From the NCBI GenBank assembly GCA_963714105.1, contig OY970233.1, positions 755,933 to 819,932 of the forward strand: a DNA stretch of 64,000 nucleotides, in the 5' to 3' direction. A program made the position numbers and the translations under genes. Shown piece after piece: positions 1 to 43,826 of this stretch. Every line of letters begins with the position of its first letter. The first letter of the stretch is position 1. The notes beneath the pieces are model-generated. The model saw nothing but the letters and a program-made list of their open reading frames with translations, did no database searches and was not told the DNA's origin. The DNA comes from an uncultured Actinomycetes bacterium. Its GTDB lineage: Bacteria > Actinomycetota > Acidimicrobiia > IMCC26256 > PALSA-555.

Positions 1-1618
1 GCACGTGCGAACTCTGGAAAGTGATTCGCGTTGACGCAGACCACATTGAGGTCGAACGGTGCCGGGTCTGGCCCGGTTTCCCCGTCGGGCATGGCCTCGA
101 GGCGCTCGCCGGGCACTGAGGAATGGTCGAGCACCGACGTGGCTTGGCCTCCGACCCGGAACGCGTCGACGAGCGTTCGCCCCACCGCACCGAGACCGAT
201 CGCGGACCGGAGGTACCCGACCACGTTCACGCCGACCGGGATGGGGGCTCGCAGCCGGCGGAGCTGCCGGCGGCGGCGCAACCGCTCGACGTCGTCGAGG
301 GAGGGGCGCACAGCCGACGGGATCGGCCGGTCGGTGGTCACGCACCACCGCAGGAACCGTTCGGCCGTCTCCCCGGTCAGCTCGAAGTACGCGAGGGGCA
401 GGCCGCCGTCGTCGGCCCAGAGCCGCTCGAGGTACCGGGAGACGACGGGATGATGCTCGGGGCGGACCGGTTCGTTGAGCCAGGCGACGAAGGCGGCTTC
501 GTCGACGAACGGGTTCGGGGGCTCGGGGTCGGCGTCGCCCGCGGCGCGGGCGAGGGCCTCCCGGTAGAGCTGGCGCATCCGACGGTCGATCGGGGTCCCG
601 TCCGAGAGCCGTTCGAACCGGTACGGAGGGGACGGCTGGTCGAGACCCTCGTCGCGGAGCCGCTCCGTGTACTCGCGGTACAGCCGCGCGAGGTCGGGTC
701 GCTCGGCGAGGGTGACTCGAGGGGTCCCGTCGCACGGGAAGAGCTCCCCGGGTTGTTCGGGGTCGTAGTCCCGGAAGTGCAAGCACCGGAGGCGCACGCC
801 GTCGATGGTCGGTCCGGCATCGGTCTCGGTGATCGGACGGTCGGCGACGTTCCAGTAGCCGACCCCGGAGCCGGGGTCGCGCAGCACGTGCGGACGGAAG
901 GCGCTGGCGACCTGGTCGCCCCAGGCGCGTTGGCGGCTCGCGACCGTGTCGAAGGAGTCGGGCGTGTCGGTCCGGTCCTGGAGCTGAGCCCAGCGCAGCA
1001 TCGGGCGGGCAAGCGGGGTGACGGCGACGAACCCGGGGTTGTAGGGCCCGACGCTGAGCACCGCGGCGCGGAGGGCTCCCGGCCGTCGTCGGGGATCGGC
1101 GTGGGCGCCGAGGGGACGACGACCAGGCCGTGCTCGACCGCGAGCTCGGCGACACCTTCGAACGGAGCGAAGACCTCGGAGGCCGCGTCGAGGTAGAGCG
1201 CGACGGACGCGCCGTGGTCGAGCAAGGAGCTCAGGAGCGACGGCTTCAGGACCTCCACGAGCTCCAGCTGGTCGTAGCGCATGGCCAAGCGCGCGAAGTC
1301 GTCGGGGTCGAGGTCGAGATCGTCGGGACGCAGGATCGTCCAGGGCGCCTCGGTGGGATGCGGCTGCTCGTCGAGCGCGTCGAGGACGAGGACGGCAAGG
1401 GGAGCAGCGTCGGGGTGGTGGCGGCGAAAGGATCCGGCGAGGACCCGAGCTCGCGGGAGGTCTCGGGTGGCAACGACGGTGCACACCTGCAGTGCGTTCA
1501 AGGTTTCGAATGCCTCTCGGAGCCGAGGTTCGTGTGCGGCGAGCCCCAACGGTGCCGGCACACCGTAGCGACCCGGGGAGCGTCGCCGGTATCCTCGACG
1601 TCGTGGGTTCGCTTGCAT
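1..1618 (-). pseudogene. Putative glycosyltransferase (nucleotide-diphospho-sugar transferase-like N-terminal part plus further C-terminal domain). The 3' end runs off the window and there is an apparent 1-nt frameshift near 1080-1090.
   Basis: ORF 377..1618 reads as a normal protein for about 175 aa (QVCTVVATRDLPRARVLAGSFRRHHP...PIPDDGRE), then becomes S/P/T/R-rich. A second minus frame continues sensibly from about 1080 to position 1 (GALRAAVLSVGPYNPGFVAV...VNVVGYLRSAIGLGAVGR...PFDLNVVCVNANHFPEFAR) with no stop before the window edge. The true start is probably internal to the 1618 ORF start. Confidence 0.6.
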
Positions 1619-2202
1619 TGAAGGAGTGGGCGGTCGTGGTGCGGGCCGTGCTCGCCGGCGAGCAGATCCTGGATGTGCGCAAGGGCGGACTGCGCGAGGA
1701 GGGCCGCCACTTCGGCCTGCACGGGGACTGCTTCTGGCTGTACCCGACGTACGAGCACCAACGCGTCGAGCTGGTGAAGCCCGCCTACCGGCGGTGGGTC
1801 ACCGAATCGGATCCGGGTGCGTCGACCGATGGGCACGTCCGGCTCGACGGCTGGGCCGAGGTGGTCGGGGTCGTGACGGTCACCGAGCCCGAGGAGCTGG
1901 CGCGCCTCGGGTCGAAGCTGATCTGGACCGACGACTACGCGGCGTCGCGGTTGCAGTGGAAGCGACGCGACCCGCTGTGGCTGCTCGCGTTGCGCGCGTA
2001 CCGCGTCGACGAGCCGATCCGGGCGCCCTGGCGTGACCGCTACGCGGGGTGCGCGTCGTGGGTCGATCTCGACGAGGTCCCGGACCCGCGCACGGTCGCG
2101 AGCGCACCGGCGTTGAGCGACGAGAGCTTCACGGCTCGGTTGGGGCTGGTCGAGCGGGAGCTCGGCCGATCGTTCGGACCCGCGACAGCGCCGGCGCCCT
2201 AG
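1603..2202 (+). CDS. DUF1802 family protein
   Basis: ORF 1492..2202 trimmed to the in-frame GTG at 1603. The sequence LALKEWAVVVRAVLAGEQILDVRKGGLREE...FWLYPTYEHQ is typical of DUF1802. GC3 is high. Confidence 0.75.
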   Translation: MGSLALKEWAVVVRAVLAGEQILDVRKGGLREEGRHFGLHGDCFWLYPTYEHQRVELVKPAYRRWVTESDPGASTDGHVRLDGWAEVVGVVTVTEPEELARLGSKLIWTDDYAASRLQWKRRDPLWLLALRAYRVDEPIRAPWRDRYAGCASWVDLDEVPDPRTVASAPALSDESFTARLGLVERELGRSFGPATAPAP

Positions 2203-2530: not shown

Positions 2531-2733
2531 TGTCGGCTGTTGGGTAGCGTCGGCCGTCGCGCGGGAGGGACCAATCCCCGCCGGTCCGGCGCCGGTGTCG
2601 CGGTGTGGTTTCCGCTGGCGGTCCAGCCGGTGTGTGTGGCCTAGCGGCCGCGCACCTCCAGGGTCCCGTGTTGATCATGCATGTACGGACCACCTCCTTT
2701 CCCTGGTAGCCGCACTTGTACCACGTCGGGCGG

Positions 2734-3183
2734 TCAGTCGGGAGGAGATTCGCTGAACGGGTCGGCGGGGGTGCCGATCGCGCCGATGGCCCGCAAGTAG
2801 CGCAGCTGGGTCTCGATGACGCCGTGGACCTGCTCGGGGAGGTACGGCTCGCCGGTCTCCGCCGCCCGTTGGAGAATGTACGCGGTGGTCTCGGCCCCGC
2901 CGAAGATGACGGGGCTGCGCAACGCCGGGCTGGAGCCGTTCGCGGCGACCCCGCGGCTCTTGAAGAACTCGAGTTGGAAGTCGAGGATCCGTCGGACGTC
3001 GTCGGGGGTCAGCGTGGCCGCGAGGTCATCGGGGACGTGCTCGACGACGAACTCGTACGCGTCGTCAGGATCGAACAGCGCCGGTGGTGGTTCCCGCGCG
3101 ATCCGGCCCGCTTCGCGCACGACGAAGATCGCCGCGATTCCGATGATCAACCCGAACGCGAGCAGGCCGGCCACGAGCGCCAC
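2734..3183 (-). CDS. N-terminally membrane-anchored hypothetical protein (149 aa)
   Basis: Intact ORF with high GC3. It has an N-terminal hydrophobic helix (MALVAGLLAFGLIIGIAAIFVV) followed by a soluble acidic domain. No family recognised. Confidence 0.7.
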   Translation of the reverse strand: MALVAGLLAFGLIIGIAAIFVVREAGRIAREPPPALFDPDDAYEFVVEHVPDDLAATLTPDDVRRILDFQLEFFKSRGVAANGSSPALRSPVIFGGAETTAYILQRAAETGEPYLPEQVHGVIETQLRYLRAIGAIGTPADPFSESPPD

Positions 3184-3294
3184 TCACCCGAGCGTACCGG
3201 TCGACCCCGCGAACCGTCGCTGCCGCCGGTTCGGCTCGCCGGCGCGATCCCGCGCGCTGGCTCGCGACGGGGTCGTGTCGGGATGCTGACCGGT

Positions 3295-4926
3295 TCAGGC
3301 GTGGAGGGGGGCGAAGACACCGCCGAGGTAGGACCAGGTGGTGCTCCACGTCGAGCCGTTCCACTGCTTGCTGTACATGCCCTGGTCACCGTTGTCGACG
3401 ACGAACACCCAGAGGCTCCCGTTGAAGACGACGGGGGTCGGGTCGCTGAGCACGGTCTGCCCGGTCCCCGGGCCGCCGAGGCTGGTCCAGGTGTTGGCGC
3501 TGGCGCCGGTGAGCGCCATGGCCCACACCTGGTTGTCGGTGCTGCGCGCGAAGACCCACACGGTCCCGGTCGAGTCGACGATCGGGGTGGGGTCGGACGT
3601 GAGGGTGTGCGCTGGCGTTCCCGGGTCCTCCGACCAGCCCCCCACCGACGACCAGTACGCGAGGTTGCCGTCGCCCGCGCGCACGAACATCCACACCCGA
3701 CCGGTCGGGTCGCACACCGCGGTGGGGTTCGACGTCACGGTGGGGCCACCGAGGGGCGCGAAGCCACCCCAGCTGCCGCCCGAACGCTGGAGATACGACA
3801 TCCCGGAGTCGTTGCCCCGCACGAAGACCCACATGGTGTGCGCCGTGTCGACGACCGCCGCGGCGTTCGAGCTGAGGATCCCGCCGAGCCGGATCCACCC
3901 GGGGCTGGCCTGGGGGCTGACGAAGAGGGCGTTGTCGGTCCCGCGGGCGAACACCCACGTCGTCGTGCCGTCCGCGTCGAGCACCGTGGTCGGGTCGGAG
4001 GTGATCGTCCCGCCGATCGCGTTGCTCAGCGGGGTGAGCGTCCCGCCGTTGTCGGTGACCTGCCAGACCGCCTCGTCGGCCCCGCGGAAGAACAGGGACG
4101 CGTTGGCGTTCTGGGAGACACCAGCGATCTGGGAGTTGACGTTGCCGCCCACCTTCGTCCACCCGGCCCACGTGGTGCCGTCGTAGGTCTGGTACCAGAG
4201 GGCCCCGTCGGCGCCACGGGCAGCGAGGACGAGCTTCGAACCGGCGACCGCGGCCGCGCCGCTCGTCGCGAGCGCGGCGGCGAGCGGCGGTGGTGGAGGT
4301 GGCGGGGGCACGTAGGCGGCGCAGTCCGCGTTGTGGTTCGCGGTGGCGTCGTCGACCGCGGCGGACGCGGAGCAGTAGAGCTCGGTGTACGGCGGGTACG
4401 GGGGGGTGCACAGGACCATCCGGCAGGCGATCGGCCCGATCTCGCCGAACTGGGGGTTGCACTGCCCGTACCGGAAGTAGTTGCAGTGGACCTTGCGGGT
4501 GTTGCAGTCGACCGCGCACCGGCACGGGGAGCACCCGGCGCAGAAGCCGTTCCCGATCGACGGCCCGCAGCACACCTCGTTGCAGTCGATGTAGTACCGG
4601 GGTCCGCCGCCGCAGTAGATGCTGCCGTCGGCGCGCCACCACCCGGCCGGGATCGTGTTGGGCGGGCACTCGTTGTTCCCGAAGTTGATGACACAGCAGA
4701 ACTCGGTGTACCCGTCGGTGCAGAAGGTCCCGCCGGGGCAGTCGGTGATCCGCGTGTACGGACTGCCGGGTTGGGTGACCACCGCGCAACCGGTGGCGGC
4801 GACGGCCGAGCCGACGAGGGTGGCTCGAGCGATGAAGCTGCGCCGGTTCAGCTTCGCGTCGAGGAGGCCGCTGGCCTTCGAGACCAGCCAGTTCCCCCAC
4901 GCGACACCCTCGCTGCGGTCAGTCAC
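3295..4926 (-). CDS. Tat-signal/lipobox protein: 20-Cys domain (methylamine dehydrogenase light-chain-like motifs), poly-Pro linker and seven-bladed PLL/DUF346-type beta-propeller (543 aa)
   Basis: ORF 3295..5658 trimmed to the GTG at 4926, which forms a GTGA overlap with the stop of the MauE-like gene and has a GAGGGG SD about 7 nt upstream. The twin-arginine motif is NRRSFIARATLVGSAVAATGC, with a lipobox-like ATG|C. Cys-rich segments include CPPNTIPAGWW and YIDCNEVCCG. A PPPPPPPP linker follows. There are seven repeats of W-V/M-F-x-R-G-x-D ... W ... LGG. Confidence 0.85.
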   Translation of the reverse strand: MTDRSEGVAWGNWLVSKASGLLDAKLNRRSFIARATLVGSAVAATGCAVVTQPGSPYTRITDCPGGTFCTDGYTEFCCVINFGNNECPPNTIPAGWWRADGSIYCGGGPRYYIDCNEVCCGPSIGNGFCAGCSPCRCAVDCNTRKVHCNYFRYGQCNPQFGEIGPIACRMVLCTPPYPPYTELYCSASAAVDDATANHNADCAAYVPPPPPPPPLAAALATSGAAAVAGSKLVLAARGADGALWYQTYDGTTWAGWTKVGGNVNSQIAGVSQNANASLFFRGADEAVWQVTDNGGTLTPLSNAIGGTITSDPTTVLDADGTTTWVFARGTDNALFVSPQASPGWIRLGGILSSNAAAVVDTAHTMWVFVRGNDSGMSYLQRSGGSWGGFAPLGGPTVTSNPTAVCDPTGRVWMFVRAGDGNLAYWSSVGGWSEDPGTPAHTLTSDPTPIVDSTGTVWVFARSTDNQVWAMALTGASANTWTSLGGPGTGQTVLSDPTPVVFNGSLWVFVVDNGDQGMYSKQWNGSTWSTTWSYLGGVFAPLHA

Positions 4927-5456
4927 TGCGGGCCCCTCGTCGGCTGGATCGCGGCCAGCGTACGCGGCAGGCTCGAGAGGGTCAGGTAACTGAGCCCGAC
5001 GCCGCACACGACGAGCATGAGGAACGGCACACCCGCGAGGGGCTGGTGCGTCACGACCGGGCCGAGGCCGGCCGGGGGTTCGACCGCGACGACGGCCGCG
5101 GCGGCGACCGCGACCAGGTTGACGATGACGTGCAGCCGCGTGGGGGGCGTGTCGGCCTTGCCGAAGCATCCGCACGACGAGATCGGGGCGCCGGACCGCA
5201 ACGCGACGACGACGAAGGCGGCGAACGCCGCGTACGAGACCGCGACGAGGATCGCGGTGGTCCGGTTGCCGACGGCCAGCGCGGCGGTGCCGACGACGAT
5301 CTCGGCGAGCCCGCCGACTCGGACCAGGAGCGGCGAGGTGGGAAGGTGAACGGCCCGCAGCGCGTTCGCGGTGTCGCCGGGCCGCGCGGCCTTGGCCGCG
5401 CCGCCGGCGACGAGCAGCGCGGCGGCGATCGCGAACGGTCCGGCGGCGAGGGTCAT
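4923..5456 (-). CDS. MauE/DoxX-like integral membrane protein
   Basis: Intact 177-aa ORF with 4-5 hydrophobic helices and the SSCGCFGK motif characteristic of the MauE family. An ATGA overlap with the upstream gene and a GTGA overlap with the downstream gene indicate translational coupling. Confidence 0.8.
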   Translation of the reverse strand: MTLAAGPFAIAAALLVAGGAAKAARPGDTANALRAVHLPTSPLLVRVGGLAEIVVGTAALAVGNRTTAILVAVSYAAFAAFVVVALRSGAPISSCGCFGKADTPPTRLHVIVNLVAVAAAAVVAVEPPAGLGPVVTHQPLAGVPFLMLVVCGVGLSYLTLSSLPRTLAAIQPTRGPQ

Positions 5457-5971
5457 GGCCGGGGGGTGAGCTCGGGGGCGATCTGGAGGCTGGCGAGGAC
5501 CTCGTTGACGCGGGGGACGATGGTGTTGCGGTTCGCGTAGGCGCCGAGCACGACGTAGAGGCAGAAGGGTCGGTTCGCCTGGGTGAAGAAGCGCTGCACG
5601 CCGGCCTGGCCGGGGAGACGACGTTGGAGGATGCCGGGATCGAACTCCTCGGGATCAAGCCGTTGCGGGAGGCCCGACGGTGCGAACAGCGCGGTGTTGA
5701 GCTCAGCCGGTCCGAACTCCTTCAACACGACGAGGGCGTCGTTCGGGCCGAGCTTCTCGACCGCGTCGCTGGCGTAATCGGCGACGTCGTTGGGCAGGGG
5801 AATCGTGGCGACGTGCGCGACGGGGTAGGTCTGTTCACCGGGCGGTCCGGGCCGGCCGGGCGCGCCGGCGGCGGCGTCGGAGACCTCGCCGGCCTGGGGC
5901 CGCCGGAAGATCCGACCTTCCCACCCGCGCGGCGGCGAGACGGTCAAGCCGTGCGCTTGGAGCTGGGGCAC
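5453..5971 (-). CDS. Hypothetical soluble protein (172 aa), operon member
   Basis: Intact ORF with protein-like composition and high GC3. It overlaps the MauE-like start by ATGA. No family recognised. Confidence 0.75.
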   Translation of the reverse strand: MPQLQAHGLTVSPPRGWEGRIFRRPQAGEVSDAAAGAPGRPGPPGEQTYPVAHVATIPLPNDVADYASDAVEKLGPNDALVVLKEFGPAELNTALFAPSGLPQRLDPEEFDPGILQRRLPGQAGVQRFFTQANRPFCLYVVLGAYANRNTIVPRVNEVLASLQIAPELTPRP

Positions 5972-5980
5972 GCCTTCTCC

Positions 5981-6574
5981 TTAGACGATCAGCGCAGCGC
6001 TGGTGGCGGCGACGAGCACGAGACACGTTATGGCGGCAATGGTGGCGGCTGCGGACCATCGGTGCACGCGTTGGAGCACGTCCCGGAGGTGCCCGGGGTC
6101 GTCGGCGCGGGCGACGGCGAGGAGCGGCACCGACCGGACGAGCCCGAAGACGCCGCCCACGAGGAGTCCCGCCGGCAGGGATCCGGCGAGGACGACGAGG
6201 GCGAGGGCGAGGTAGACGGTCGAGGTGGTCACGATGGTGACGACACCGAGCCCGAGCTGGAACCCGAAGCCGCCGCCGTAGACCCAGCCGCGGTACCGAG
6301 CCAGCCAGTTCTCGTTGACCTGGCGGTGGACGGTCGGGAGGCGAGCGCCGAAGATCCCGAGATCGAACGCGAGGCCGACCATGCACGCCAGAACGGCGAG
6401 CCCGCCGAGCAGCTTCGGTCCCGGCGACAACTGGTGCAGGCCGACGCCGAGCGCACCCGCGACGGCGCCGATCGCGAGTCCCCCCGCGGTCGAACCGGCG
6501 ACGTACCAGGCGACCGTGCGCCCCCAACGGGTGTGTCGTGCCCGCTCCCCGAGCGGGTTGATGCTGGCCAGCAT
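5981..6574 (-). CDS. Polytopic membrane protein (197 aa, about 5 TM helices), family not recognised
   Basis: Intact ORF with G/A/L/V-rich helices. A GGAG SD lies 6 nt upstream of the ATG, immediately after the micro-ORF stop. Confidence 0.75.
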   Translation of the reverse strand: MLASINPLGERARHTRWGRTVAWYVAGSTAGGLAIGAVAGALGVGLHQLSPGPKLLGGLAVLACMVGLAFDLGIFGARLPTVHRQVNENWLARYRGWVYGGGFGFQLGLGVVTIVTTSTVYLALALVVLAGSLPAGLLVGGVFGLVRSVPLLAVARADDPGHLRDVLQRVHRWSAAATIAAITCLVLVAATSAALIV

Positions 6575-6583
6575 CGATTCTCC

Positions 6584-6661
6584 TCAGGGCGACCACGAGG
6601 AGCGGAGCCCCGCGATGACGGCCACCGCCACCGCGGCGACGGTGAGCTCCGCCGAGCTCAT
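6584..6661 (-). CDS. Candidate 25-aa micro-protein MSSAELTVAAVAVAVIAGLRSSWSP (single hydrophobic helix)
   Basis: This ORF is below the ORF-track size cut-off and was translated by hand. Its ATG overlaps the TGA of the MauD-like gene (ATGA). All 25 codons end in G/C. Its stop is followed by GGAGAATCG and the ATG of the next gene. Confidence 0.5.
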   Translation of the reverse strand: MSSAELTVAAVAVAVIAGLRSSWSP

Positions 6662-7395
6662 CGGGGCGGTTCGACCTCAGGATCGGCGTCGCCGAGGTAG
6701 AGGCTGGCGTCTCCGGGCTTGAGCCCGGCGGCGAGCAGCTGCGCGTCGACGTCGGGTTCGCGCTCGGCGCGACCGGACCGGCGGCGCCGCCCGGAGGCCA
6801 TCCCGGCGTCGTCGAGGGCTTGCTGCACGATGGTGCGCAGGTGCTCCCAGCTCGACGCCGCGCCCTCGCCGATCACGGCTCCACTAGGGCCGTCCACGAG
6901 CGCGAAGTACGGCGCGACGGGCACGTCGTAGTCGTCCCACGCTTCGCTGGACATGACGACCGGGACGTGGGGCGGCGCGAACTTCGACAGCCGGCCCGGG
7001 CTCTCGGCGTCGGCGCCTTTGGTCGCGACGACCAGACGGGCGCCGCCGGGCACCTTCAGGCGCCGGTCGGCGTACGCCGACCAGAACGCCGAACAGGTGG
7101 AGCACCCGCTGGTCAGGAAGGAGACGAGGGTCAGGTGCTCGACGCCGACGACACCGACGCCGATCGCGTCACCCTCGGGGGTGAGACCGGCGAGGTCGGA
7201 GCCGGTCCGCGAAGCCCGGCGGAGGGGCACCTCGAGCCCGGCCCGGGCGGGCTGGTCGTCGTCGGGGTCGAGACCGACGCCGAGCTCGTGCAACGAGCGG
7301 AGGATCTCGGCGTGGCTGCGCAGCAGGCCGGCAACCAAGACGGCGAGCAGCGCCACCACGACGGCGAGCAGAACGACCAGGACCGCCACGGACAC
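6658..7395 (-). CDS. MauD/TlpA-like membrane-anchored thioredoxin-fold protein (CxxC = CSTC)
   Basis: Intact 245-aa ORF with an N-terminal TM helix (VAVLVVLLAVVVALLAVLVAGLL) and the LTSGCSTCSAFW redox motif. It is the first gene of the 7395-to-3295 operon. Confidence 0.8.
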   Translation of the reverse strand: MSVAVLVVLLAVVVALLAVLVAGLLRSHAEILRSLHELGVGLDPDDDQPARAGLEVPLRRASRTGSDLAGLTPEGDAIGVGVVGVEHLTLVSFLTSGCSTCSAFWSAYADRRLKVPGGARLVVATKGADAESPGRLSKFAPPHVPVVMSSEAWDDYDVPVAPYFALVDGPSGAVIGEGAASSWEHLRTIVQQALDDAGMASGRRRRSGRAEREPDVDAQLLAAGLKPGDASLYLGDADPEVEPPR

Positions 7396-10280: not shown

Positions 10281-11477
10281 ATGGTTGACATCGAGACCGC
10301 TCCGGTTCCGGTCGCGCCAGTCGAGGGTTCGGTCCCCGAGCTGACGGTCGTGTTGCCGTGCCTGAACGAGGCCGAGACGGTCGGGGCCTGCGTCCACAAG
10401 GCGCTCACTGCCGCCACCGGGCTGGGAATCGCCGTCGAGGTGCTCGTGGCCGACAACGGCAGCACGGACGGCTCGCAGGAGATCGCGACGCGAGCGGGGG
10501 CCCGCGTGATCGACATCCCGGTCAAGGGGTACGGCGCAGCGCTTCGCGGTGGGATCACCGCCGCCCGTTCGGAGTTCGTGCTGATGGCGGACGCCGACGA
10601 CAGCTACGACCTCTCCGACCTCGCTCCGTTCGTCGAGGGACTCCGCGGCGGCTCGGACCTCGTGATGGGCAACCGGTTCGCGGGCGGGATCCAGCCCGGC
10701 GCGATGCCCCCGCTGCACCGGTACGTCGGCAACCCGGTGCTGACCTTCCTCGGCCGGCTGTTCTTCCACAGCCCGAGCCGTGACTTCCACTGCGGTATCC
10801 GCGCGTTTCGACGCTCGAAGGTCCTCGCGTTGGATCTCCGCACGAACGGCATGGAGTTCGCGAGCGAGATGGTCGTCAAGGCCACGCTCGCCCAGCTGGC
10901 CATCACCGAGGTTCCGACCACGCTCGCCCCCGACGGCCGCACCCGCGCACCGCACCTCAAGACCTGGCGCGACGGGTGGCGGCACCTGCGCTTCCTGCTC
11001 CTCTACAGCCCACGGTGGCTGTTCCTCTACCCCGGCCTCGCGCTCATGGGCGCCGGGTTCGCGCTCGGCGTCGCGCTCCTCCCCGGACCGATCCACATCG
11101 GAACCGTCGGGCTCGACGTCAACGCCCTCATCTACTGCATGGTCGCGGTGTTGGTGGGGTTCCAATCGGTGCTGTTCGCTCTGTTGGCGCGGGCGTTCGC
11201 GATGAACGAGGCGCTCCTCCCGACCTCCCCGGCGATCACGAAGGCGTTTCGCGTGTTCACCCTGGAGCGGGGTCTCCTGGCCGGCGGCCTCCTCCTCGTC
11301 GCCGGCCTCGGGTCGTCGCTGTACTCGGTCGCGCACTGGGGATCGCTCGGCTTCGGTGCCCTCAACGCCCGCGACGCGGTGCGGCTGGTGGTGCCGGCGG
11401 CCACGACCACCGTCCTCGGCTTCGAGGTCGTGTTCGCGAGCCTGTTCTTCAGCATCCTCGGCCTCGCCCGGAAATGA
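10281..11477 (+). CDS. GT2 family glycosyltransferase with C-terminal transmembrane region (polyprenol-phosphate glycosyltransferase-like)
   Basis: Intact 398-aa ORF. It has LTVVLPCLNEAETV, VADNGSTDGS and MADADDSYD (DxD) motifs, followed by about 4 hydrophobic helices. Confidence 0.85.
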   Translation: MVDIETAPVPVAPVEGSVPELTVVLPCLNEAETVGACVHKALTAATGLGIAVEVLVADNGSTDGSQEIATRAGARVIDIPVKGYGAALRGGITAARSEFVLMADADDSYDLSDLAPFVEGLRGGSDLVMGNRFAGGIQPGAMPPLHRYVGNPVLTFLGRLFFHSPSRDFHCGIRAFRRSKVLALDLRTNGMEFASEMVVKATLAQLAITEVPTTLAPDGRTRAPHLKTWRDGWRHLRFLLLYSPRWLFLYPGLALMGAGFALGVALLPGPIHIGTVGLDVNALIYCMVAVLVGFQSVLFALLARAFAMNEALLPTSPAITKAFRVFTLERGLLAGGLLLVAGLGSSLYSVAHWGSLGFGALNARDAVRLVVPAATTTVLGFEVVFASLFFSILGLARK

Positions 11478-12511
11478 CCGACCGAGCCCAGCCGACGGTC
11501 AGCGCCGTCGTGCTCGCCTACCGTGACGAGCCCTGGCTCGAGAAGTGCGTCTTCGCGCTGCTGCAGTCCCAGGACGTCGACGTCGAGGTGATCCTCGTCG
11601 ACAACGGCTGCACCGACAGTGGCGTCGCCCGGCTGCGCGGGGTCCCAGGCGTGGTCCACGTCGGCGACGGTCACAACACGGGGTTCTCGGGCGGCTGCAA
11701 CGCCGGCGCCGCCCGCGCCACCGGCGAGTACGTGGCCCTCGTGAACGGAGACCTGATCGTCGACGGTGACGCGCTGGCGCGGCTGGTCACCGTCGCCGCC
11801 GACGAGACCATCGGGATCGCCGCGGGCAGCGTCCGACTCGCGGAGGACCGCGAGCTGCTCAACACGGCCGGGAACGAGATCCACTTCCTCGGGTTCAGCT
11901 GGGTCGGACATTTCGGCGAGCGGGCCGCCGACGCGGCCCGCGCCCGTGACGTCGCCGGCGCGATGGGGGCCTTCCTGCTGATGCGCCGCGCCGTCTGGGA
12001 GGACCTCGGCGGCTTCGACGACCACTACTTCGCGTTCCACGAAGACGCCGAGCTCAGCTGGCGCTGCTGGCAAGAGGGTCTTCGAGTCCGGTACGTCCCG
12101 GACGCGGTCGGCCTGCACCGCTACGAGTTCGGGCGGGTGTCGAACAAGCTGTACCTGGCCGAGCGAAACCGGCTGCTGTTCGTGTTGACCGCGTGGGACA
12201 CCCGCACGCTGCTGGTGCTCGCGCCCGCGCTCCTCGCCGTGGAGGTCGCGGTGACCGTCGCCGCCGTCGCCGGGGGTTGGTTCGCGCAGAAGCTCGCGGG
12301 GTGGCGGTGGATCCTCGGGCACACCTCCTGGCTTCGAGCCCGACGCCGGCATCTGCAGACCCGCCGGCGGGTCTCCGATCGTGAGCTGGCGCCGCTCATG
12401 GCGTCGCACCTCGACGCGCGCAACTTCCCGCTCCCTCCGGCGGCGCAGCCGCTCGACCGGCTCCTCGCCGGCTACTGGACGCTCGCCCGGCGACTCCTCG
12501 GATCGGCGTGA
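11474..12511 (+). CDS. GT2 family glycosyltransferase (345 aa)
   Basis: ORF 10976..12511 trimmed to the ATG at 11474 (ATGA overlap with the upstream stop). It carries VSAVVLAYRDEPWLEKCV, VDNGCTD and FHEDAELSWR motifs. Confidence 0.85.
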   Translation: MTDRAQPTVSAVVLAYRDEPWLEKCVFALLQSQDVDVEVILVDNGCTDSGVARLRGVPGVVHVGDGHNTGFSGGCNAGAARATGEYVALVNGDLIVDGDALARLVTVAADETIGIAAGSVRLAEDRELLNTAGNEIHFLGFSWVGHFGERAADAARARDVAGAMGAFLLMRRAVWEDLGGFDDHYFAFHEDAELSWRCWQEGLRVRYVPDAVGLHRYEFGRVSNKLYLAERNRLLFVLTAWDTRTLLVLAPALLAVEVAVTVAAVAGGWFAQKLAGWRWILGHTSWLRARRRHLQTRRRVSDRELAPLMASHLDARNFPLPPAAQPLDRLLAGYWTLARRLLGSA

Positions 12512-13114
12512 CGACGGATCCCGCGGACAAGGCGGCCGCCGACCAGGAGTACGCGGACCGCCTCGTCGCGCGGGGAGGTCTGGTGGAAGCGGCTCCTCGG
12601 CGCGCAGCTCCCCTACCGGTGGAACCTTCGACGGTTGCGCCCGGGCTACACCCTCGACATCGGCTGTGGGACGGGCCGCAACCTCGAGCATCTCGAGGGC
12701 CACGCGGTCGGCGTCGACCCGAACGAGGCCGGCGTCGCGATCGCGACGGCGAAGGGATACGACGCGTTCACCCCGGACGGCTTCGCCCGCTCGCGCTTCG
12801 CGCAACCCCGGATCTTCGACACGGTCCTCTTCGCGCACGTGCTCGAGCATCTCGAGACCCACGACGCGGCAGCGCTGATCGGCCGCTACCTTCCGTCCCT
12901 GCGAGCCGGTGGGCAGGTGATCATGATCACACCTCAGGAGAGCGGCTTCCGGTCCGACTCGACGCACCGCACGTTCCTCGACTTCTCCGCGTTGTCTCGC
13001 CTCGCGGCGGCGTGCGCGCTCACCCCGGTGCGCTCCTACTCGTTCCCGTTCCCGCGCTGGGCCGGGCGCGCGTTCCGGTACAACGAGTTCGTGGTGGTCG
13101 CGACCCCGTCCTGA
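12508..13114 (+). pseudogene. Class I SAM-dependent methyltransferase, apparent +1 frameshift near 12570-12580
   Basis: The GTG at 12508 overlaps the upstream stop (GTGA) and encodes MTTDPADKAAADQEYADRLVAR. The methyltransferase body (WWKRLLGAQLPYRWNLRRLRPGYTLDIGCGTGRNL...) is in the frame of ORF 12635..13114. The switch falls at the run CGGGGA. Confidence 0.7.
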
Positions 13115-13127
13115 CCGACCGCGCCGG

Positions 13128-14738
13128 TCACGACCCGACCGGTGATGGCTCCTCGGCTGGACGCGCACGGACCGGCGTGGTCGGGGTCCGTTTCGGTTCG
13201 GGCATCCGGAACAGCCAGATCGTCGCTGCCCCCAGCACGACGATGAAGCAGACGAGGAGCAACGACGCGGGGACGGGCGGCGACCACGCGGCATGGGAGA
13301 CGAACAGGATCTTGGCGTTGTATCCGACCATGTCGCGCCGCATGCTCTGCGCGAGGGAGAAGAACTGGCCGAAGAAGAACGCGGCGCCGGCGACGGCCGC
13401 GACCCGCCCGGACAGCGCGGTGGCGTTGCCCGTGCGTGAGAGGAGCACGCCCGCGACGATGGGAACCCCGACGGCGAGCGGGAGCCCGTAGCGTCCTTGC
13501 CACACGTACCCGACGCTGTGGGCGCTGGCGGCTTCCAACACGATCGGTACCGCAACGGTGAGGGCGAGGACGCCGGCGAGCGCGCCGGCCGCTCGGCGCC
13601 CCGACCAGGCGAGCCCGAGGATGACGAGCAGCCCGAGGACGAACGCCCAGGCCACGAGGACCCCCGTCGGCGTCGGGGTGTCGAGCCAACCGAAGTTGCC
13701 GATCATCTGCGAGAAGAACGAGAACGACCCCCCGATCGACTTTCGGATGACGAGGCTGGTCGGATCGTGGGAAGCGCCGGCAAGGTTGGCGAGGTTGACA
13801 GACCCCGCGACGGCGAGCCACACGGCCTGCGCGGCGATCGCTCCGAGCACGACGGCGCCCCAGACCCGGACGCCCCGATTCGCGGCGAGGCGTCGAGTTC
13901 CCGCCTTCCCCGCGAGGACGACCATGACCGCGACGACGATCGCCACCCAGAGCGGACCGAGCTGACGGCAGAGCGCCAACGCGGCACCGGCGATCCCGAC
14001 GCGACGCACCAGCCGGGGATCGATGGCGCCGTCGGATCGGACCGCGAGCACGGTGCCGGACGCCCAGAGCGAGATCCCCGCGGCGATCTCGACGCCGCTC
14101 GGGTTCACGACCGACCCGAGGAACACCGCCATCGGCGTCACCGCGAACGCGTAGCCGATCGCGGCGATTCGGCGTCGCGGCAGCGTCGCGATCGAGAGGG
14201 CACCCATGGCGAGCAGCGCGGAGACGAGCACGACCGCGAGGGCGCGCATCACGTACACCGATCTCAGCGCCGACGAGACGAGCGAGGGGAGGCCGACGAC
14301 GGCGTAGTAGGCCGGTGGGTAGCGTCCGTACTCGGCGACGGTCTTGATGTCCCGATGCGACGTCGCGAACTTCGCGGAGTTGGCGGGGTCGTTGCGGTAG
14401 AAGGCGTAGCAGCCGACCTGTCGTCCGCTCGCGAAGGTGGCGGGGACCCGGACGTTGGTGTACCCACCGAGCTGGTGCGCGGCCTGGGGTTCGAGCACCT
14501 GGCCGTGCACCTCGGTGACGGCCCTGATGACGTGTTCGGGTTCGTCGGGAGCACCGAAGAGCGGGGTCGCGAGACTCCAGCAGAGGCCGAGGGCGACGAA
14601 CAGCGCGAAGGTCACCCAGAAGAACTGCCGTGACGAGACGGTGCTCAGGTGCTGGTCGAGGCGGCCCGCGAGGTGCTTCTTACTACGACGAGGTGATCCC
14701 GTCGTGACGGCCGGGCGCGCGGCGCCGCCGGTGGACAT
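13128..14738 (-). CDS. DUF2142-type polytopic membrane protein (putative GT-C-like glycosyltransferase)
   Basis: Intact 536-aa ORF with more than 10 hydrophobic helices and the early FGAPDEPEHVIRA motif typical of DUF2142. It sits in a glycosyltransferase neighbourhood. Confidence 0.8.
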   Translation of the reverse strand: MSTGGAARPAVTTGSPRRSKKHLAGRLDQHLSTVSSRQFFWVTFALFVALGLCWSLATPLFGAPDEPEHVIRAVTEVHGQVLEPQAAHQLGGYTNVRVPATFASGRQVGCYAFYRNDPANSAKFATSHRDIKTVAEYGRYPPAYYAVVGLPSLVSSALRSVYVMRALAVVLVSALLAMGALSIATLPRRRIAAIGYAFAVTPMAVFLGSVVNPSGVEIAAGISLWASGTVLAVRSDGAIDPRLVRRVGIAGAALALCRQLGPLWVAIVVAVMVVLAGKAGTRRLAANRGVRVWGAVVLGAIAAQAVWLAVAGSVNLANLAGASHDPTSLVIRKSIGGSFSFFSQMIGNFGWLDTPTPTGVLVAWAFVLGLLVILGLAWSGRRAAGALAGVLALTVAVPIVLEAASAHSVGYVWQGRYGLPLAVGVPIVAGVLLSRTGNATALSGRVAAVAGAAFFFGQFFSLAQSMRRDMVGYNAKILFVSHAAWSPPVPASLLLVCFIVVLGAATIWLFRMPEPKRTPTTPVRARPAEEPSPVGS

Positions 14739-15099
14739 CAGGTGGGTGCGTCGGGCTCACCGGGCGCGGCCGCCGTCAGATCGAAGCCCGCGACTCGCGC
14801 CGGCGCCCCTCCGCCGTGGCGTCGACGGTGATCAACCATCGGTCCTTCGCGCTGGGCGTGATTGTCGCGCCGCGGGCTGCGACCGAGGGGGGGTGGCGAC
14901 GGTCGCTTCATAGAGCAGGTCGCACCGCCCGTAGTCGTGTGGCACCGTCCCCCACGGGAGCGGAGGCTATCGCACCCTCTTCGCCGGTCGTCCGCTCGAC
15001 GATCCGCTCCCCCGGTCTGGAACCCGAACGCCGGGGTCAGCACCGTCGAGTGCGGCGTCCACGCGCGCGATCTCGCTCGGTGCTCGTACACTGCCGCTC

Positions 15100-15711
15100 G
15101 TGGCTCGTCCCGCTCATTTCGAAGATGCCGACGTCCGGGTCGACAAGCTCGTCGTCGGCCCGTTCGAGAACAACGCGTACGTGGTGCGGTGCAAGCGCAC
15201 CGGGCGTGGGGTGCTCGTCGACGCCGCCAACGAGCACTCGCTCCTCGTCGACGTGTGCCGGGCCAGTGGCGTTCGTCAGGTGCTCACAACGCACGGACAC
15301 TGGGACCACATCCAGGCGGTCACCGCGGTCCGGGATGCCGGGATCGAGGTCGGGATCGCACCCGACGATGCCGCGATGCTCCCGAGCTATGACTTCGTGA
15401 TCCCCGACGACGAGGTGTACCCGGTTGGGGACCTGCGCTTCCGGGCGATCCACAACCCGGGCCACACGCCGGGCTCGACGTCGTTCCTGCTGGAGGGCAA
15501 GCCGCTCGTCTTCACCGGTGACACCCTGTTCCCCGGAGGTCCGGGCAACACGGCGACACCGGGCGCGAGCTTCGAGCAGATCATCTCGTCGATCGACCGT
15601 CGACTCTTCAGCCTCCCCGGCGATCTCCTGGTCCTCCCGGGGCATGGACTCGACACCACCGTCGCGGAGGAGCGACCGCACTTGGAGGAATGGGTCGAGC
15701 GAGGCTGGTGA
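15100..15711 (+). CDS. MBL-fold metallo-hydrolase (glyoxalase II-like)
   Basis: Intact 203-aa ORF with THGHWDH metal-binding motif, HNPGHTPGS and VLPGHG. Confidence 0.85.
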   Translation: MARPAHFEDADVRVDKLVVGPFENNAYVVRCKRTGRGVLVDAANEHSLLVDVCRASGVRQVLTTHGHWDHIQAVTAVRDAGIEVGIAPDDAAMLPSYDFVIPDDEVYPVGDLRFRAIHNPGHTPGSTSFLLEGKPLVFTGDTLFPGGPGNTATPGASFEQIISSIDRRLFSLPGDLLVLPGHGLDTTVAEERPHLEEWVERGW

Positions 15712-15826
15712 CGCCTCGAATGCCGGACGCAGCCACCATGACGACCGAGATCGCCGCCCTCCGAACGAGCGCCGTCGCACCCGCGCGTCGCGGACCGACG
15801 CGACGACCCGTCGGGGGCACGCGGGA

Positions 15827-16834
15827 GTGGCCGTGAGCGCGTCTGACGTCCAGCCTCGCCAGCCCGAGGTGCCCCTCCCCCCGATCGAGCTGCGAGGGCG
15901 CGTCGGTGCGGTGCACGACGACGACCTGCGCTTCGATCAGGAAGGCCGGCGCTGCTACGAGGCGATCCTCCGAGCGTTGCCCTCCGACTTCTCGCTCGCC
16001 GGAGCCCGCGTCCTCGACTTCGGATGCGGCGCGGGGCGAGTGCTCCGACAGTTCGTGCGCGAGCACCGAGACGCGGACCTGTGGGGTTGCGACGTGCACG
16101 AGCCGAGCATCGCATGGCTCCAAGCTCACCTGTCCCCACCGTTGCACGTGTTCGTCAACGACACCGCGCCGCCCCTCCCGTTGGAGACCGACTCCGTCGA
16201 CCTCGTCTACGCGCTGTCGGTGTGGACGCACCTCGCCGACGACTGGAGCGACTGGCTCCTCGAGCTGCATCGCATCCTCGGCCCGACCGGCGTCGCCGTC
16301 ATCACGACCCTCGGCGAGCCGATGTGGGAGCAGCACCTCGGGAAGCCCTTCTTCCAGGACCAGCTCCGGCGACCGTGGGACGACGAGCGGGTCGGCCTGT
16401 TCGTCACCAACTACGGCATGCCCCAGGACGACATCGGCCCGGTCGTCTACCAGTCGGAGTGGTGGACCCGGGAGCACTGGGGACGCGCCTTCGAGATCCT
16501 CGACTTTGCCCCGTGGGGCTTCTCGACCGAGCCGGGTCGCCGCGACGGCCAGGGCGTCGTCACCCTGCGGCCCCGACCCGTCGAGGTCGACCGGGCCGCG
16601 CTCGAGGCACCTGGCCCGAACGTCGCTCAAGAGCTGGAGGCCGTGCAGGCCAACCTCTCGTACGTCCACGCGGAGATGGCGGCGTGGCGGGACCTCGCCG
16701 CGGCCGCCGGTGCCGCGTACGAAGCCGCGGCGGCCGACGCCGCGGCCCTCGCCGACCCTCCGACGGTGCCGAGACGCGCGGCCCGCCGGATCGCCCGCGG
16801 TTGGTCCCGGCCGCGCGGCGCCCGCCCCCGCTGA
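15827..16834 (+). CDS. Class I SAM-dependent methyltransferase
   Basis: ORF 15425..16834 trimmed to the in-frame GTG at 15827 (or 15833) behind GCGGGAG. It carries VLDFGCGAGRVLRQF and DLVYALSVWTHL motifs. The part upstream of the chosen start is R/S-rich. Confidence 0.75.
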   Translation: MAVSASDVQPRQPEVPLPPIELRGRVGAVHDDDLRFDQEGRRCYEAILRALPSDFSLAGARVLDFGCGAGRVLRQFVREHRDADLWGCDVHEPSIAWLQAHLSPPLHVFVNDTAPPLPLETDSVDLVYALSVWTHLADDWSDWLLELHRILGPTGVAVITTLGEPMWEQHLGKPFFQDQLRRPWDDERVGLFVTNYGMPQDDIGPVVYQSEWWTREHWGRAFEILDFAPWGFSTEPGRRDGQGVVTLRPRPVEVDRAALEAPGPNVAQELEAVQANLSYVHAEMAAWRDLAAAAGAAYEAAAADAAALADPPTVPRRAARRIARGWSRPRGARPR

Positions 16835-16885
16835 CCCGGCGCCGACCGCGCGCACAGCCCGGAGCGGGTCGGGACGGAGCCGGGC

Positions 16886-18052
16886 CTACCGACCGGAGTC
16901 GAGGACCTCGCGGTACAAGGCTCGGGTCTGGCGGATGCAACGTTCCCACGTGAAGCCGCTCGCCCATTCCCGACCGCGTTCGCTCATCACCCGGCGGGCG
17001 GTCTCGTCGCCGAGCACGTCGACGAGGGTGTCGCCCCACGCGGTGGCGTCGTGGGGGTCGGCGAAGCGAGCCGCGTCGCCGGCGGTCTCGCGCAGGACCG
17101 GGATGTCGGAGCAGACCACCGGCGTTGCTTGCACCATCGCCTCGAGGACCGGAAGCCCGAAGCCCTCGTGGAGGCTGGGGAACGCGAACAGGGTCGCGTC
17201 TCGGTAGAGGGCGACGAGACGGTCGGCGCGCAACGGACCGGTGAACCGGACTCGGTCGCCGAGCGCGGCGGCGGCGTGGTGGACCGCCCGCGGGCCGCCG
17301 TGCCACCCGGGCGGCCCGACGATGACGAGCAGCTCGGGGCGCCCAGCGCGGATCACCGCCTGGAACGCCTCGAGGAGCACCGGCAGGTTCTTTCTCGGTT
17401 CGAGGGTCCCCACCCAGAGCACGTACGGCGCGTCACCGAGCCCGAGCGTGGATCGCGCCGCGGTGATCAGCGGCTCGCTGACCCGGCGTTGGGCGACCCC
17501 GTGGGGGACGATGCGGACCCGTTCGGGTCGGATCCGGGTTCGGGAGAGGATCTCGTCCGCGGCGGCCTGGGTGGGGGCGATCACCAGGTCGGCGCGCCGA
17601 GCGGTGGCGGAGAGCCCACGGTCGTGGAACCAGCGGCCCCGCCACGGGTACGCCTCGGGGAACACGAGGGTGGCCGCGTCGTGCGCGGTCACGATCAGCG
17701 CCGACCCGTCGGCGCGGGGTGGGACGGCCAGCGACGGGGCGTGGACGATGTCGACCCCGCGCAGCTCGCGGTGCAGCAGGTTGAGCGGCGGGACGCCAAA
17801 GTCGTTCCAGGTCTCGTACAGCACCGGCCGGGGCAGCCAGAGCCGGACCGGCTCAAGATCCGCGAGGCCGAAGGCACCCAGGGCGGCTTCGACTCGCGCC
17901 GCCCGGTGGCGGGCCACGAAGGGGACCACCTCGATACGCTCGCCCCCGTCGGGGTCGGGGCCGGGCAGGAGCCGGGCGAGCTCCGACGTGTAGCGGCCGA
18001 TCCCGCCGGGCGGGCGCTGGAGCAGCTGCTCGAGGTTGAGGGCGACACGCAT
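16886..18052 (-). CDS. GT4 (GT-B fold) glycosyltransferase
   Basis: Intact 388-aa ORF with MRVALNLEQLL at the N-terminus and FAFPSLHEGFGLPVLEAMVQATPVV (E-x7-E region). Confidence 0.85.
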   Translation of the reverse strand: MRVALNLEQLLQRPPGGIGRYTSELARLLPGPDPDGGERIEVVPFVARHRAARVEAALGAFGLADLEPVRLWLPRPVLYETWNDFGVPPLNLLHRELRGVDIVHAPSLAVPPRADGSALIVTAHDAATLVFPEAYPWRGRWFHDRGLSATARRADLVIAPTQAAADEILSRTRIRPERVRIVPHGVAQRRVSEPLITAARSTLGLGDAPYVLWVGTLEPRKNLPVLLEAFQAVIRAGRPELLVIVGPPGWHGGPRAVHHAAAALGDRVRFTGPLRADRLVALYRDATLFAFPSLHEGFGLPVLEAMVQATPVVCSDIPVLRETAGDAARFADPHDATAWGDTLVDVLGDETARRVMSERGREWASGFTWERCIRQTRALYREVLDSGR

Positions 18053-22825: not shown

Positions 22826-23810
22826 ATGGTGAGCACCAACGTCCCCGACGTCCAGGTGGACGTGCACCTGTCGTCCACCGAGCTGAGCGACGCGCTCGCC
22901 GCCGACGTCCGGTCCGGGTTGACCCGCGTCCCGAAGGAGCTCCCCCCGAAGTGGTTCTACGACGATCGGGGCTCCGAGCTCTTCGACGCCATCACCCGCC
23001 TCCCCGAGTACTACCCGACCCGCGCCGAGCGCGCGATCCTCGGCGCCCGGGCGTCGGAGATCGCCGCCGCGGCCCGCGCCGACACGCTGGTCGAGCTCGG
23101 GTCGGGCACCTCCGAGAAGACCCGGCTGCTCCTCGACGCGCTCCGCGACCACGGCACCTTGCGCCGGTTCGTGCCCTTCGACGTGAGCGAGGCGACCCTG
23201 CGCACCGCCGCCGACGCGATCGCCGACGAGTACGGCGTCGCGGTGCACGCCGTCGTCGGCGACTTCGAGCGTCACCTCGACCGGCTCCCACCGGGAGACA
23301 CCCGGCTGGTCGCGTTCTTGGGCGGCACGATCGGGAACCTCGCGCCCGCGCCGCGCGCGGTGTTCCTCGACGCGCTCGGTGCGGTGCTCCGACCGGGCGA
23401 CACGCTGCTGCTCGGCACCGACCTGGTCAAAGCGGGTGACCGGCTCGAGGCCGCGTACGACGACGCCGCGGGCGTCACCGCCGAGTTCAACCGCAACGTG
23501 CTGCGGGTGATCAACCGGGCGTTGGGCGCCGACTTCGTCCCCGAGCGCTTCGACCATGTCGCCCGGTGGGATCCCGACTCGGCGTGGATCGAGATGCGGC
23601 TCCGGGCTCGTGGCGCGCAACGGGTCGTGGTGCCCGAGCTCGAGCTCACGGTCGAGTTCGCCGACCAGGAGGAGGTCCGCACCGAGATCGAGCGCGAAGT
23701 TCACCCGCCCTCGCGTCGAAGCCGAGCTGGACGCGGCCGGTTTCACGCTCGAGCGCTGGTGGACCGACCAGGCCGGCGACTTCGGCCTGTCGCTCGCGAC
23801 CCGCAGGTGA
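22826..23810 (+). pseudogene. egtD: Histidine N-alpha-methyltransferase EgtD with an apparent 1-nt insertion near 23690
   Basis: The N-terminal roughly 290 aa are in the frame of ORF 22826 ([38 protein letters not shown]). The conserved C-terminus [39 protein letters not shown] is in the frame of ORF 23556..23810. The junction is ...ACC GAG ATC g AGC GCG AAG. Confidence 0.75.
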
Positions 23811-43815: not shown

Positions 43816-43826
43816 CGTGGCGCAGC

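Follow-up and report, generated by a model that had tools for sequence, protein, structure and literature searches.

In a window of 64,000 nucleotides from contig OY970233.1 of an uncultured actinobacterium (the window being the whole stretch of DNA that was analysed), a gene at 3295..4926 on the minus strand encodes a protein of 543 residues in which a twin-arginine translocation (Tat) leader, a lipobox, a Cys-rich domain, a linker with eight prolines (P8) and a seven-bladed β-propeller follow one another. The Cys-rich domain, called the head in the following, is read here as a disulfide knot resembling MauA, the light chain or small subunit of methylamine dehydrogenase (MADH), which would be matured by the products of mauF-, mauE- and mauD-like genes and displayed on a lectin propeller; the probability of this reading is put at about 60%. 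The architecture itself is not a product of chance, as residues of the protein are invariant or conserved across 57 homologues and the propeller matches the PLL lectins at an E-value of 6e-43.

A Cys-rich head family with mauFED-like genes

The head comprises residues 55-206 (4309..4764, minus strand), as delimited from the alignment of homologues, an AlphaFold2 (AF2) model, Foldseek and hhalign, and its 20 cysteines run from C63 to C202. In the alignment of 57 homologues, eight of these cysteines are invariant and eight more are kept in at least 90% of the sequences, so that 16 are conserved, while the remaining four (C119, C120, C129 and C132) are clade-specific. The invariant residues of the head are G72, C77, C78, G83, N85, C87, P88, G95, W96, W97, D100, S102, C105, R110, D114, C115, C141, R144, F151, R152, Y153, G154, C156, C168 and R169. 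The invariance of Trp, Asp, Arg and Tyr residues points to a specific binding or catalytic site, for which the cluster W96-W97/D71/D100/D114/R110/R144/R152/Y153/R169 is the candidate. The whole domain may be a knot of roughly 150 residues with up to ten disulfides; its AF2 model has a predicted local distance difference test (pLDDT) score of 81 overall and above 90 over residues 70-170.

With residues 1-206 as query, a word-indexed search returned 227 relatives. When 1.84 billion representatives were scanned exhaustively with HMMER, 627 clusters (at 50% identity) were found with E<=1e-3, 295 of these with E<=1e-30. In all 627 clusters the head domain is N-terminal without exception, taking up about residues 1-230 of proteins of 187-742 amino acids (aa). 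The family is found at no fewer than 566 loci in species-level genomes, mostly of Acidimicrobiia, and is also carried by Mycobacteriales, Frankiales, Jatrophihabitans, Euzebyaceae, Iamia and the cultured Kineococcus gynurae. Neither Pfam nor NCBIfam assigns the head to a family in any of the members, and the proteins are named "hypothetical protein" or "RICIN domain-containing protein" at their source. Compared by HMMER with Pfam, NCBIfam and the PDB sequences, the head gave nothing relevant, be it as a single sequence or as the 57-sequence profile, and the best match was granulin with an E-value of 1.6. The literature search found no description of the head family, of its mauFED-like operon or of its display on wall-binding and lectin modules, all of which appear to be undescribed.

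The target gene is the last of five genes on the same strand (6658-7395, 5981-6574, 5453-5971, 4923-5456 and 3295-4926), with gaps of 83 nucleotides (nt) between the first two and 9 nt between the second and third, and with overlaps of 4 base pairs (bp) both between 5453-5971 and 4923-5456 and between 4923-5456 and the target. The products were compared with the ten proteins of the canonical Paracoccus locus L085 (mauF, B, E, D, A, C, J, G, M and N). Directly upstream of the target, 4923..5456 (minus strand) encodes a MauE homologue of 177 aa (Pfam MauE, E 1.7e-15, 57.9 bits against a cut-off of 27) with the loop C95-G-C97-F-G; CGCFG is kept in at least 90% of 55 MauE proteins of such clusters, the profile of which scores 27.5 bits against Paracoccus MauE. 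In E. coli, MauE is able to stand in for DsbB, and experiments identified C-x-C together with a conserved F-G as its active site (bioRxiv 10.64898/2026.03.05.709764).

The first gene of the operon (6658..7395, minus strand) codes for a MauD-like thioredoxin of 245 aa with an N-terminal membrane helix and the motif G-C98-S-T-C101-x-x-F-W, the CxxC of which is conserved in 68 homologues. Its only NCBIfam match is TIGR02661 MauD (E 0.007); the profile of the cluster thioredoxins scores 31.6 bits against Paracoccus MauD (E 5.6e-11), and BLASTP aligns the two proteins over their full length including the N-terminal transmembrane helix (E 1e-5). The second gene (5981..6574, minus strand) codes for a polytopic membrane protein of 197 aa that is homologous to MauF, as seen from a profile match with Paracoccus MauF (75.1 bits, E 2.9e-24) and from BLASTP (35% identity over 151 aa, E 8e-9). 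It also matches Pfam DsbD_2 weakly, which had prompted the idea of a thiol relay of the CcdA type. As no cysteine is conserved among 54 homologues and the family matches MauF, the DsbD_2 match is no sign of such a relay and the idea was rejected.

The third gene (5453..5971, minus strand) encodes X172, a protein of 172 aa without a signal peptide, which according to AF2 (pLDDT 89, predicted template modelling score 0.86) and Foldseek is an α/β sandwich like PsbP, LpqN, Tsi3 and EagT6. The resemblance is weak, with Tsi3 as the best match (E 0.015) followed by MucB, EagT6, LpqN, MTC28 and PsbP, and X172 has no match in Pfam, among the PDB sequences or among the ten Paracoccus mau proteins. Its structural analogues (LpqN, MTC28, MucB, Tsi3 and PsbP) are mostly extracytoplasmic, and some of its homologues carry Pro/Thr-rich C-terminal tails. 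X172 may leave the cell as a "hitch-hiker", together with the Tat substrate.

The association of these genes with the head is not confined to one genome. In 84 loci searched with tblastn, MauE is encoded within 6 kilobases (kb) of the head gene in 76, the MauD-like protein in 73, X172 in 71 and the MauF-like protein in 58, with a varying gene order, and in four of four further contigs mauE lies directly upstream of the gene for the Cys-rich protein with a 4-bp overlap. The genes mauF, mauE and mauD are reportedly accessory genes required for accumulation of the small subunit, in work attributed to Chistoserdov in 1994 and to van der Palen in 1995 and 1997. Other components of the mau system are missing: Pfam finds no MauB, amicyanin, MauJ, MauG or MauM/N in the operon or its scanned neighbours, the four homologous contigs contain no MauB, MauG or amicyanin, and no open reading frame (ORF) of at least 150 aa in the window has a CxxCH haem motif.

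Likeness to amine dehydrogenase light chains

The first-pass annotation, made from the sequence alone, had proposed that the head resembles the MADH light chain, and had suggested a comparison of an AlphaFold model with the light chains of MADH and of aromatic amine dehydrogenase (AADH) by Foldseek. When the AF2 model of the head was compared with 350,542 PDB chains, AADH light chains took the top seven places, and seven of the top eight, followed by MADH light chains (1mae_L, 2bbk_L and others), with nearly the whole target covered. With signal-trimmed alignments of 118 sequences each, hhalign gave the head and the MauA family a score of 22.8 (P 0.0045, probability 7.7%), which rose to 23.7 (P 0.003) with an alignment of 328 sequences. 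In a control with shuffled columns the real score was reached by only one of 200 shuffles in each direction (mean about 14, standard deviation about 3), and the reversed profile scored 10.7.

The hhalign alignment, for which the sequence and residue numbering of MauA were verified, is collinear, makes chemical sense and follows the motif series DG...CC...NxCPPGT...W; it pairs C63/C69/C77/C87/C105/C135/C137 of the head with C23/C29/C38/C46/C61/C86/C88 of MauA, D71-G72 with Asp32-Gly33, N85-x-C-P-P-x-T with the N-C-P-P-G-T of MauA, and W97 with Trp57, which bears the quinone of the tryptophan tryptophylquinone (TTQ) cofactor. Judged by the spacing of the cysteines (19 and 12 residues in the head, 21 and 12 in MauA), C109 and C121 of MauA would have their counterparts in C156 and C168, which would put Q155-C156 at the position of Trp108-Cys109. 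The invariant D114-C115 may match the catalytic Asp76 and its neighbour Cys77, yet hhalign places V118-C119-C120 there.

Several results weigh against a relationship with MauA. Neither the target nor any of its 57 homologues matches PF02975, the Pfam family of the light chains, in HMMER at E<=10, the head-family profile finds no light chain among the PDB sequences, and the hidden Markov model of the head (CysDom) scores -2.6 bits against Paracoccus MauA. The hhalign probability stays at 8-10%, the second half of the head has no confident alignment to MauA and global hhalign failed. The light chains lead the Foldseek list with E-values of 1-5 and TM-scores of 0.36-0.42, and TIMP-2, another Cys-rich protein, stands in the same list at an E-value of about 4. 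A much stronger hhalign result with whole precursors (97% probability, E 2.7e-11) was rejected as evidence of homology: the signal comes from the Tat leaders, and the match is discounted because, with the profile of the family leader, the unrelated leaders of NosZ, NapA and TorA reach scores as high as that of MauA. Adjacency to mauE alone is also not specific for MauA, because MauE has been argued to be a generalist oxidase of the DsbB type with a distribution unlike that of MauA (bioRxiv 10.64898/2026.03.05.709764).

Taken alone, the profile, alignment and fold signals would be no more than suggestive. As they coincide with homologues of MauF, MauE and MauD in the operon and with a Tat-targeted disulfide knot in both proteins, the head is considered a likely true homologue of MauA. 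The light-chain proposal received more support from the operon, the top Foldseek rank and the hhalign P-values of 0.003-0.0045 than could be seen in the sequence alone; PF02975 remained unmatched, each direct similarity is weak and the suggested fold comparison, while ranking the light chains first, did so at an E-value of about 1.

In the strongest rival explanation, the head has no kinship with MauA. It would be a disulfide-rich domain that arose by convergence and that, of all clients of an oxidative-folding module of the MauE/MauD/MauF type, makes the highest demands, and its likeness to MauA would be due to Cys richness and the short CPPGT motif. The failure of HMMER with PF02975 and the PDB light chains, the low hhalign probability, the Foldseek E-values of light chains and TIMP-2 and the generalist role proposed for MauE all fit this explanation. 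It is also consistent with the decRiPPter candidates of Streptomyces, in which mauE, and once also mauD, adjoins the gene for an unrelated precursor with at least eight cysteines while other mau genes are lacking (PMC7794033). Convergence would have to account for the agreement of three independent lines on one family specified beforehand, namely a profile score above 199 of 200 shuffles, fold matches of rank 1 and the presence of MauF, MauE and MauD together, and for the collinearity of seven cysteines, Asp-Gly, N-x-CPPGT and the cofactor Trp with MauA. It is judged unlikely on these grounds.

Whatever its descent, the head does not qualify as a TTQ enzyme. TTQ is formed from two tryptophans, Trp57 and Trp108; the only ones in the mature head are the adjacent W96 and W97, and its second half contains none. 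The second Trp of TTQ is absent, and so are MauG, MauB and amicyanin. A quinoprotein of a new kind could do without them if W97, with the invariant Asp residues, were to yield a hydroxy-Trp or a Cys- or Tyr-linked quinone independently of MauG, with the lectin positioning an oxidase or dehydrogenase on glycans. In the biogenesis of MADH, the first hydroxylation of Trp57 is not known to depend on MauG, which counts for such a cofactor, as do the invariance of W96, W97, D71 and D114, the pairing of W97 with Trp57 and of D71 with Asp32, and the Tat export common to the head and MauA. In the most far-reaching version, the head would carry a Trp-derived redox cofactor and represent a third lineage of protein-derived quinones beside the TTQ and cysteine tryptophylquinone (CTQ) proteins, with W97, together with the invariant Asp and Arg residues, being oxidised and perhaps linked to Y153 or a Cys by means of the mauFED-like genes and X172 only, and with wall anchors or lectins presenting the domain at the surface of the actinobacterium; this is a long shot. 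The mature domain lacks the partner Trp, the 64 kb contain no MauG-like CxxCH protein, the conserved five-gene cluster encodes neither a flavoprotein nor a radical-SAM maturase, an electron acceptor gene such as that of amicyanin is missing and the alignment of the catalytic Asp76 is ambiguous. These points make a quinoprotein improbable in either form.

Probable export and display on a lectin propeller

The signal region (residues 1-46; 4789..4926, minus strand) consists of a helix preceding the arginine pair, the motif N-R28-R29-S-F-I and a weakly hydrophobic h-region. Within L-N-R-R-S-F-I-A, residues 27-33 are N-R-R-S-F-I-A and R28-R29 are encoded by nt 4840-4845; both arginines are invariant in the 57 homologues and F31 is kept in at least 90% of them. 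The leader conforms to the consensus (S/T)-R-R-x-F-L followed by an h-region. The Pfam model TAT_signal matches five family members weakly, and in hhalign the family leader is much like Tat leaders in general. A-T-G-C47, which lies at the end of the h-region, follows the lipobox pattern [LVIA][ASTVI][GAS]-C, within A-A-T-G-C47 as read from the sequence (4786..4800, minus strand; Cys47 at nt 4786-4788). The motif [AVI][AST]GC is kept in the propeller-bearing clade (loci L001, 5, 6, 7, 8, 10, 11, 12, 15, 25 and 35), and most members of the head family outside this clade have an A-Y-A site for signal peptidase I in place of a lipobox. The target is probably a Tat-exported, lipid-anchored protein of the cell envelope of an Acidimicrobiia-like actinobacterium.

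Behind the head, the linker (4258..4308, minus strand) starts with eight prolines (residues 207-214, nt 4285-4308) and continues with the Ala-rich LAAALATSG, as read from the translation; homologues have Pro-rich linkers at the same position. On the translation, the cysteines are distributed as Cys47, the 20 between residues 63 and 202 (140 residues) and a single one, C405, in the remaining 340 residues. The Tat motif, the lipobox-like ATG/C, the roughly 150 residues with 20 further cysteines and the run of eight prolines, all of which had been noted in the first-pass annotation, were borne out by this analysis, with the arginine pair unchanged in every homologue and Cys47 conserved within the propeller clade.

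The propeller (residues 224-543; 3298..4257, minus strand) was delimited by phmmer against the PDB and by the internal alignment of its blades. When its 320 residues are cut at the seven [LVI]GG motifs (residues 259, 304, 347, 392, 428, 483 and 534), seven mutually alignable units of 43-50 residues result, all on the minus strand: blade B1 at 4123-4257, B2 at 3985-4122, B3 at 3856-3984, B4 at 3718-3855, B5 at 3583-3717, B6 at 3433-3582 and B7 at 3298-3432. The seven WxFxRGxD blades that had been described earlier hold up as units, but only four of them contain a literal W-x-F-x-R and the other three are degenerate.

Searched with phmmer against all PDB sequences, the propeller matches only the PLL/PHL lectin family of Photorhabdus, with 8q83_A as the best match (E 6.1e-43), followed by PHL 5mxe (E 3e-34), PLL2, PLL and PLL3. 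Together with 5mxe, the entries 6rfz, 5c9l, 6t96, 8q82 and 5c9o cover E-values of 3e-34 to 1e-21, and for 8q7u_A (E 2.2e-21) query residues 217-537 align with residues 27-367. MauB, the heavy chain of MADH, is not matched at E<=10 in the same search. The copy of Pfam used here contains no model for the PLL/PHL propeller. PLL lectins are seven-bladed propellers which bind L-fucose and O-methylated sugars between their blades (PMC6943638). By sequence comparison, the target propeller is a clear homologue of these lectins and is unrelated to MauB, as had been surmised from the blade consensus.

Alignment with the Photorhabdus lectins extends over the whole propeller (residues 217-540, E 6e-43 to 2e-21), and both share seven blades with the motif W-x-F-x-R-G-x-D-N-x-L-W ... 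W-x-x-L-G-G. The lectins of Photorhabdus, a Gram-negative insect pathogen, are stand-alone soluble proteins of about 370 aa, whereas the target propeller is the C-terminal module of a predicted Tat lipoprotein from a high-GC actinobacterium and has three degenerate blades. The PLL lectin propeller known from Photorhabdus would thereby be extended to actinobacterial lipoproteins.

The propeller is one of several exchangeable partners of the head. C-terminal to the head, family members have no further domain, Pro/Thr-rich tails, ricin B lectin domains, LGFP repeats, several unassigned repeat arrays or, in the closest relatives of the target, a PLL-type propeller, which is present in about 11 of 84 related loci. 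LGFP repeats, which anchor proteins to the wall, follow the head in the homologues of Iamia and Kineococcus. Two abundant repeat types without a Pfam match were seen behind the head (in the tails of L017, L018, L021, L028 and L039), one consisting of "SGYVLDGWGGIHPFGGAP" repeats and the other of units of roughly 110 aa with "GWAIDPDT...VYVDG...RPDV...HGFD". In six genomes, head and propeller are encoded together by one ORF of 500-542 aa, and in several metagenome-assembled genomes from long reads the fusion gene is broken by frameshifts; another protein of this build, P0361, has 543 aa and is 38% identical to the target.

This modularity bears on two further explanations. Ricin and PLL lectin fusions are typical targeting modules, and among the best structural analogues of X172 are Tsi3, an immunity protein, and EagT6, a chaperone of effectors, so that a secreted toxin or antimicrobial directed by its lectin, with X172 as its immunity protein or export chaperone, might be imagined. 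The lipobox and the LGFP anchors would bind the protein to the envelope of its own producer, the likeness of X172 to Tsi3 and Eag proteins is weak (E 0.015-0.06) and its fold is generic; the head is highly conserved, N-terminal and accompanied by a fixed accessory set in at least 566 species, which is unlike polymorphic toxins. A toxin is accordingly held to be very improbable. The idea, raised at first, of a covalent union of light and heavy chains in a single-chain analogue of MADH had in its favour that MauB and the target propeller are both seven-bladed and that the head is MauA-like, but it is effectively refuted, because the partner Trp for TTQ, MauG (with no MauG-like protein in the 64 kb), a heavy subunit and amicyanin are absent and the propeller matches PLL lectins rather than MauB, is set apart from the head by a linker of P8 and an Ala-rich stretch and gives way to LGFP, ricin or other repeats at most loci.

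A model for maturation and its relation to known systems

For the preferred reading of a MauA-like knot on a lectin propeller, the following sequence of events can be envisaged. The precursor would be exported by the Tat system owing to its twin-arginine leader, and processing at Cys47 would then remove the leader and attach a lipid. Outside the membrane, the membrane-anchored MauD-like thioredoxin would introduce disulfides into the head, and would be re-oxidised by the co-transcribed MauE, a presumably quinone-linked, DsbB-like protein with the CGC active site. The MauF-like protein and X172 would help with export or assembly, as MauF does for MauA, and P8 would act as a rigid stalk joining the head to the propeller. 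The propeller would hold the head against fucosylated, deoxy- or O-methylated glycans, most likely those of the cell's own wall. Such glycans are the probable ligand because relatives carry LGFP anchors at the same position and a glycosyltransferase cluster adjoins the operon. This cluster (10281..18052) contains GT2 and GT4 glycosyltransferases and a DUF2142 membrane protein, and it may serve the synthesis of envelope glycans relevant to the ligand of the lectin.

Compared with MauA and AauA (PF02975; 2BBK_L and 2AGY_D), the head shares the predicted build of a small, disulfide-knotted, Tat-targeted domain with a long twin-arginine leader, encoded beside homologues of mauE, mauD and mauF, as well as the collinear C-x6-C, D-G, N-C-P-P-G-T, cofactor Trp and C-x-C, and it has light chains as its top-ranked fold matches, at E-values of about 1. 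It differs in having 16-20 cysteines against 12 and about 30 extra residues at its C-terminus, and Trp108, Tyr119 and Thr122 of MauA are not conserved in it. No heavy subunit, MauG, amicyanin, MauJ or MauM/N accompanies the head, which is fused to modules that bind wall or glycans and belongs to Actinomycetota, whereas MauA and AauA belong to Proteobacteria.

All three of mauF, mauE and mauD have homologues in the operon (75, 27.5 and 31.6 bits for MauF, MauE and MauD, respectively), with MauE keeping CGCFG and the MauD-like protein keeping the N-terminal anchor and CxxC. The gene order differs from that of mauF-mauE-mauD and varies among genomes, there is the additional PsbP-like X172 and the client is not MADH. 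The decRiPPter candidates, compared by description, are short candidate peptide precursors, in contrast to a multidomain Tat protein of 187-742 aa with a conserved folded domain.

Should the head be a relative of MauA, the "small-subunit half" of the mau system (MauA with MauF, MauE and MauD) would be an independent module that is widespread in Actinomycetota and does without heavy subunit, MauG and amicyanin. It would offer a natural system in which to study what MauF, MauE and MauD do by themselves, with a bearing on the role of MauF and on the source of the first Trp hydroxylation in MADH. It would also provide a dedicated client for the newly proposed oxidative-folding pathway of MauE, in a phylum that has been thought to rely on VKOR and DsbA. 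The systematic display of an unannotated domain on wall-binding and lectin modules would suggest a conserved function at the cell envelope.

The gene and its surroundings

The coordinates given in the first-pass annotation are exact: the target gene starts with GTG at 4926 and ends with a stop codon at 3295-3297. Its start codon and the stop codon of mauE share nucleotides (GTGA), the two genes being translationally coupled, and a ribosome-binding site GAGGGG lies 6 nt upstream. The GC content at third codon positions (GC3) is 0.95 and identifies the frame as coding. The protein is already present in public collections as an unnamed prediction, as the public gene prediction P0363 (543 aa) is 100% identical to it and has the same start. 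No sigma-70-like promoter and no intrinsic terminator were found around the operon. On the opposite strand, shadow ORFs run across the target at 2716..4989 (757 aa) and 3338..4186 (282 aa, GC3 0.96), and an ORF on the same strand reaches upstream to 5658 across mauE; in a genome with 72% GC these are traps for gene callers.

Downstream of the operon lie the genes of a membrane protein of 149 aa (2734..3183, minus strand) and of a DUF1802 protein (1492..2202, plus strand), which are syntenic only in the propeller clade (10 and 6 of 84 loci, respectively). They are probably mere neighbours outside the system.

Further features were seen elsewhere in the window. At 37085..39643 (minus strand), SufB, with its SUFBD core, contains an intein that carries a homing endonuclease of the LAGLIDADG type and interrupts the protein (Pfam Intein_splicing, LAGLIDADG_3 and Hom_end). 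A protein of 705 aa (22826..24943, plus strand) combines an EgtD-type histidine methyltransferase (Methyltransf_33, E 6e-97) with an EgtE-like class-V aminotransferase, and by these domain matches its gene looks like a fused gene of the ergothioneine pathway. At 42-44 kb, the GC content falls locally to 0.66 inside the gene of a UPF0182 membrane protein of 1017 aa (40942..43995, minus strand), and from 40 to 56 kb of the window the GC skew is strongly positive.

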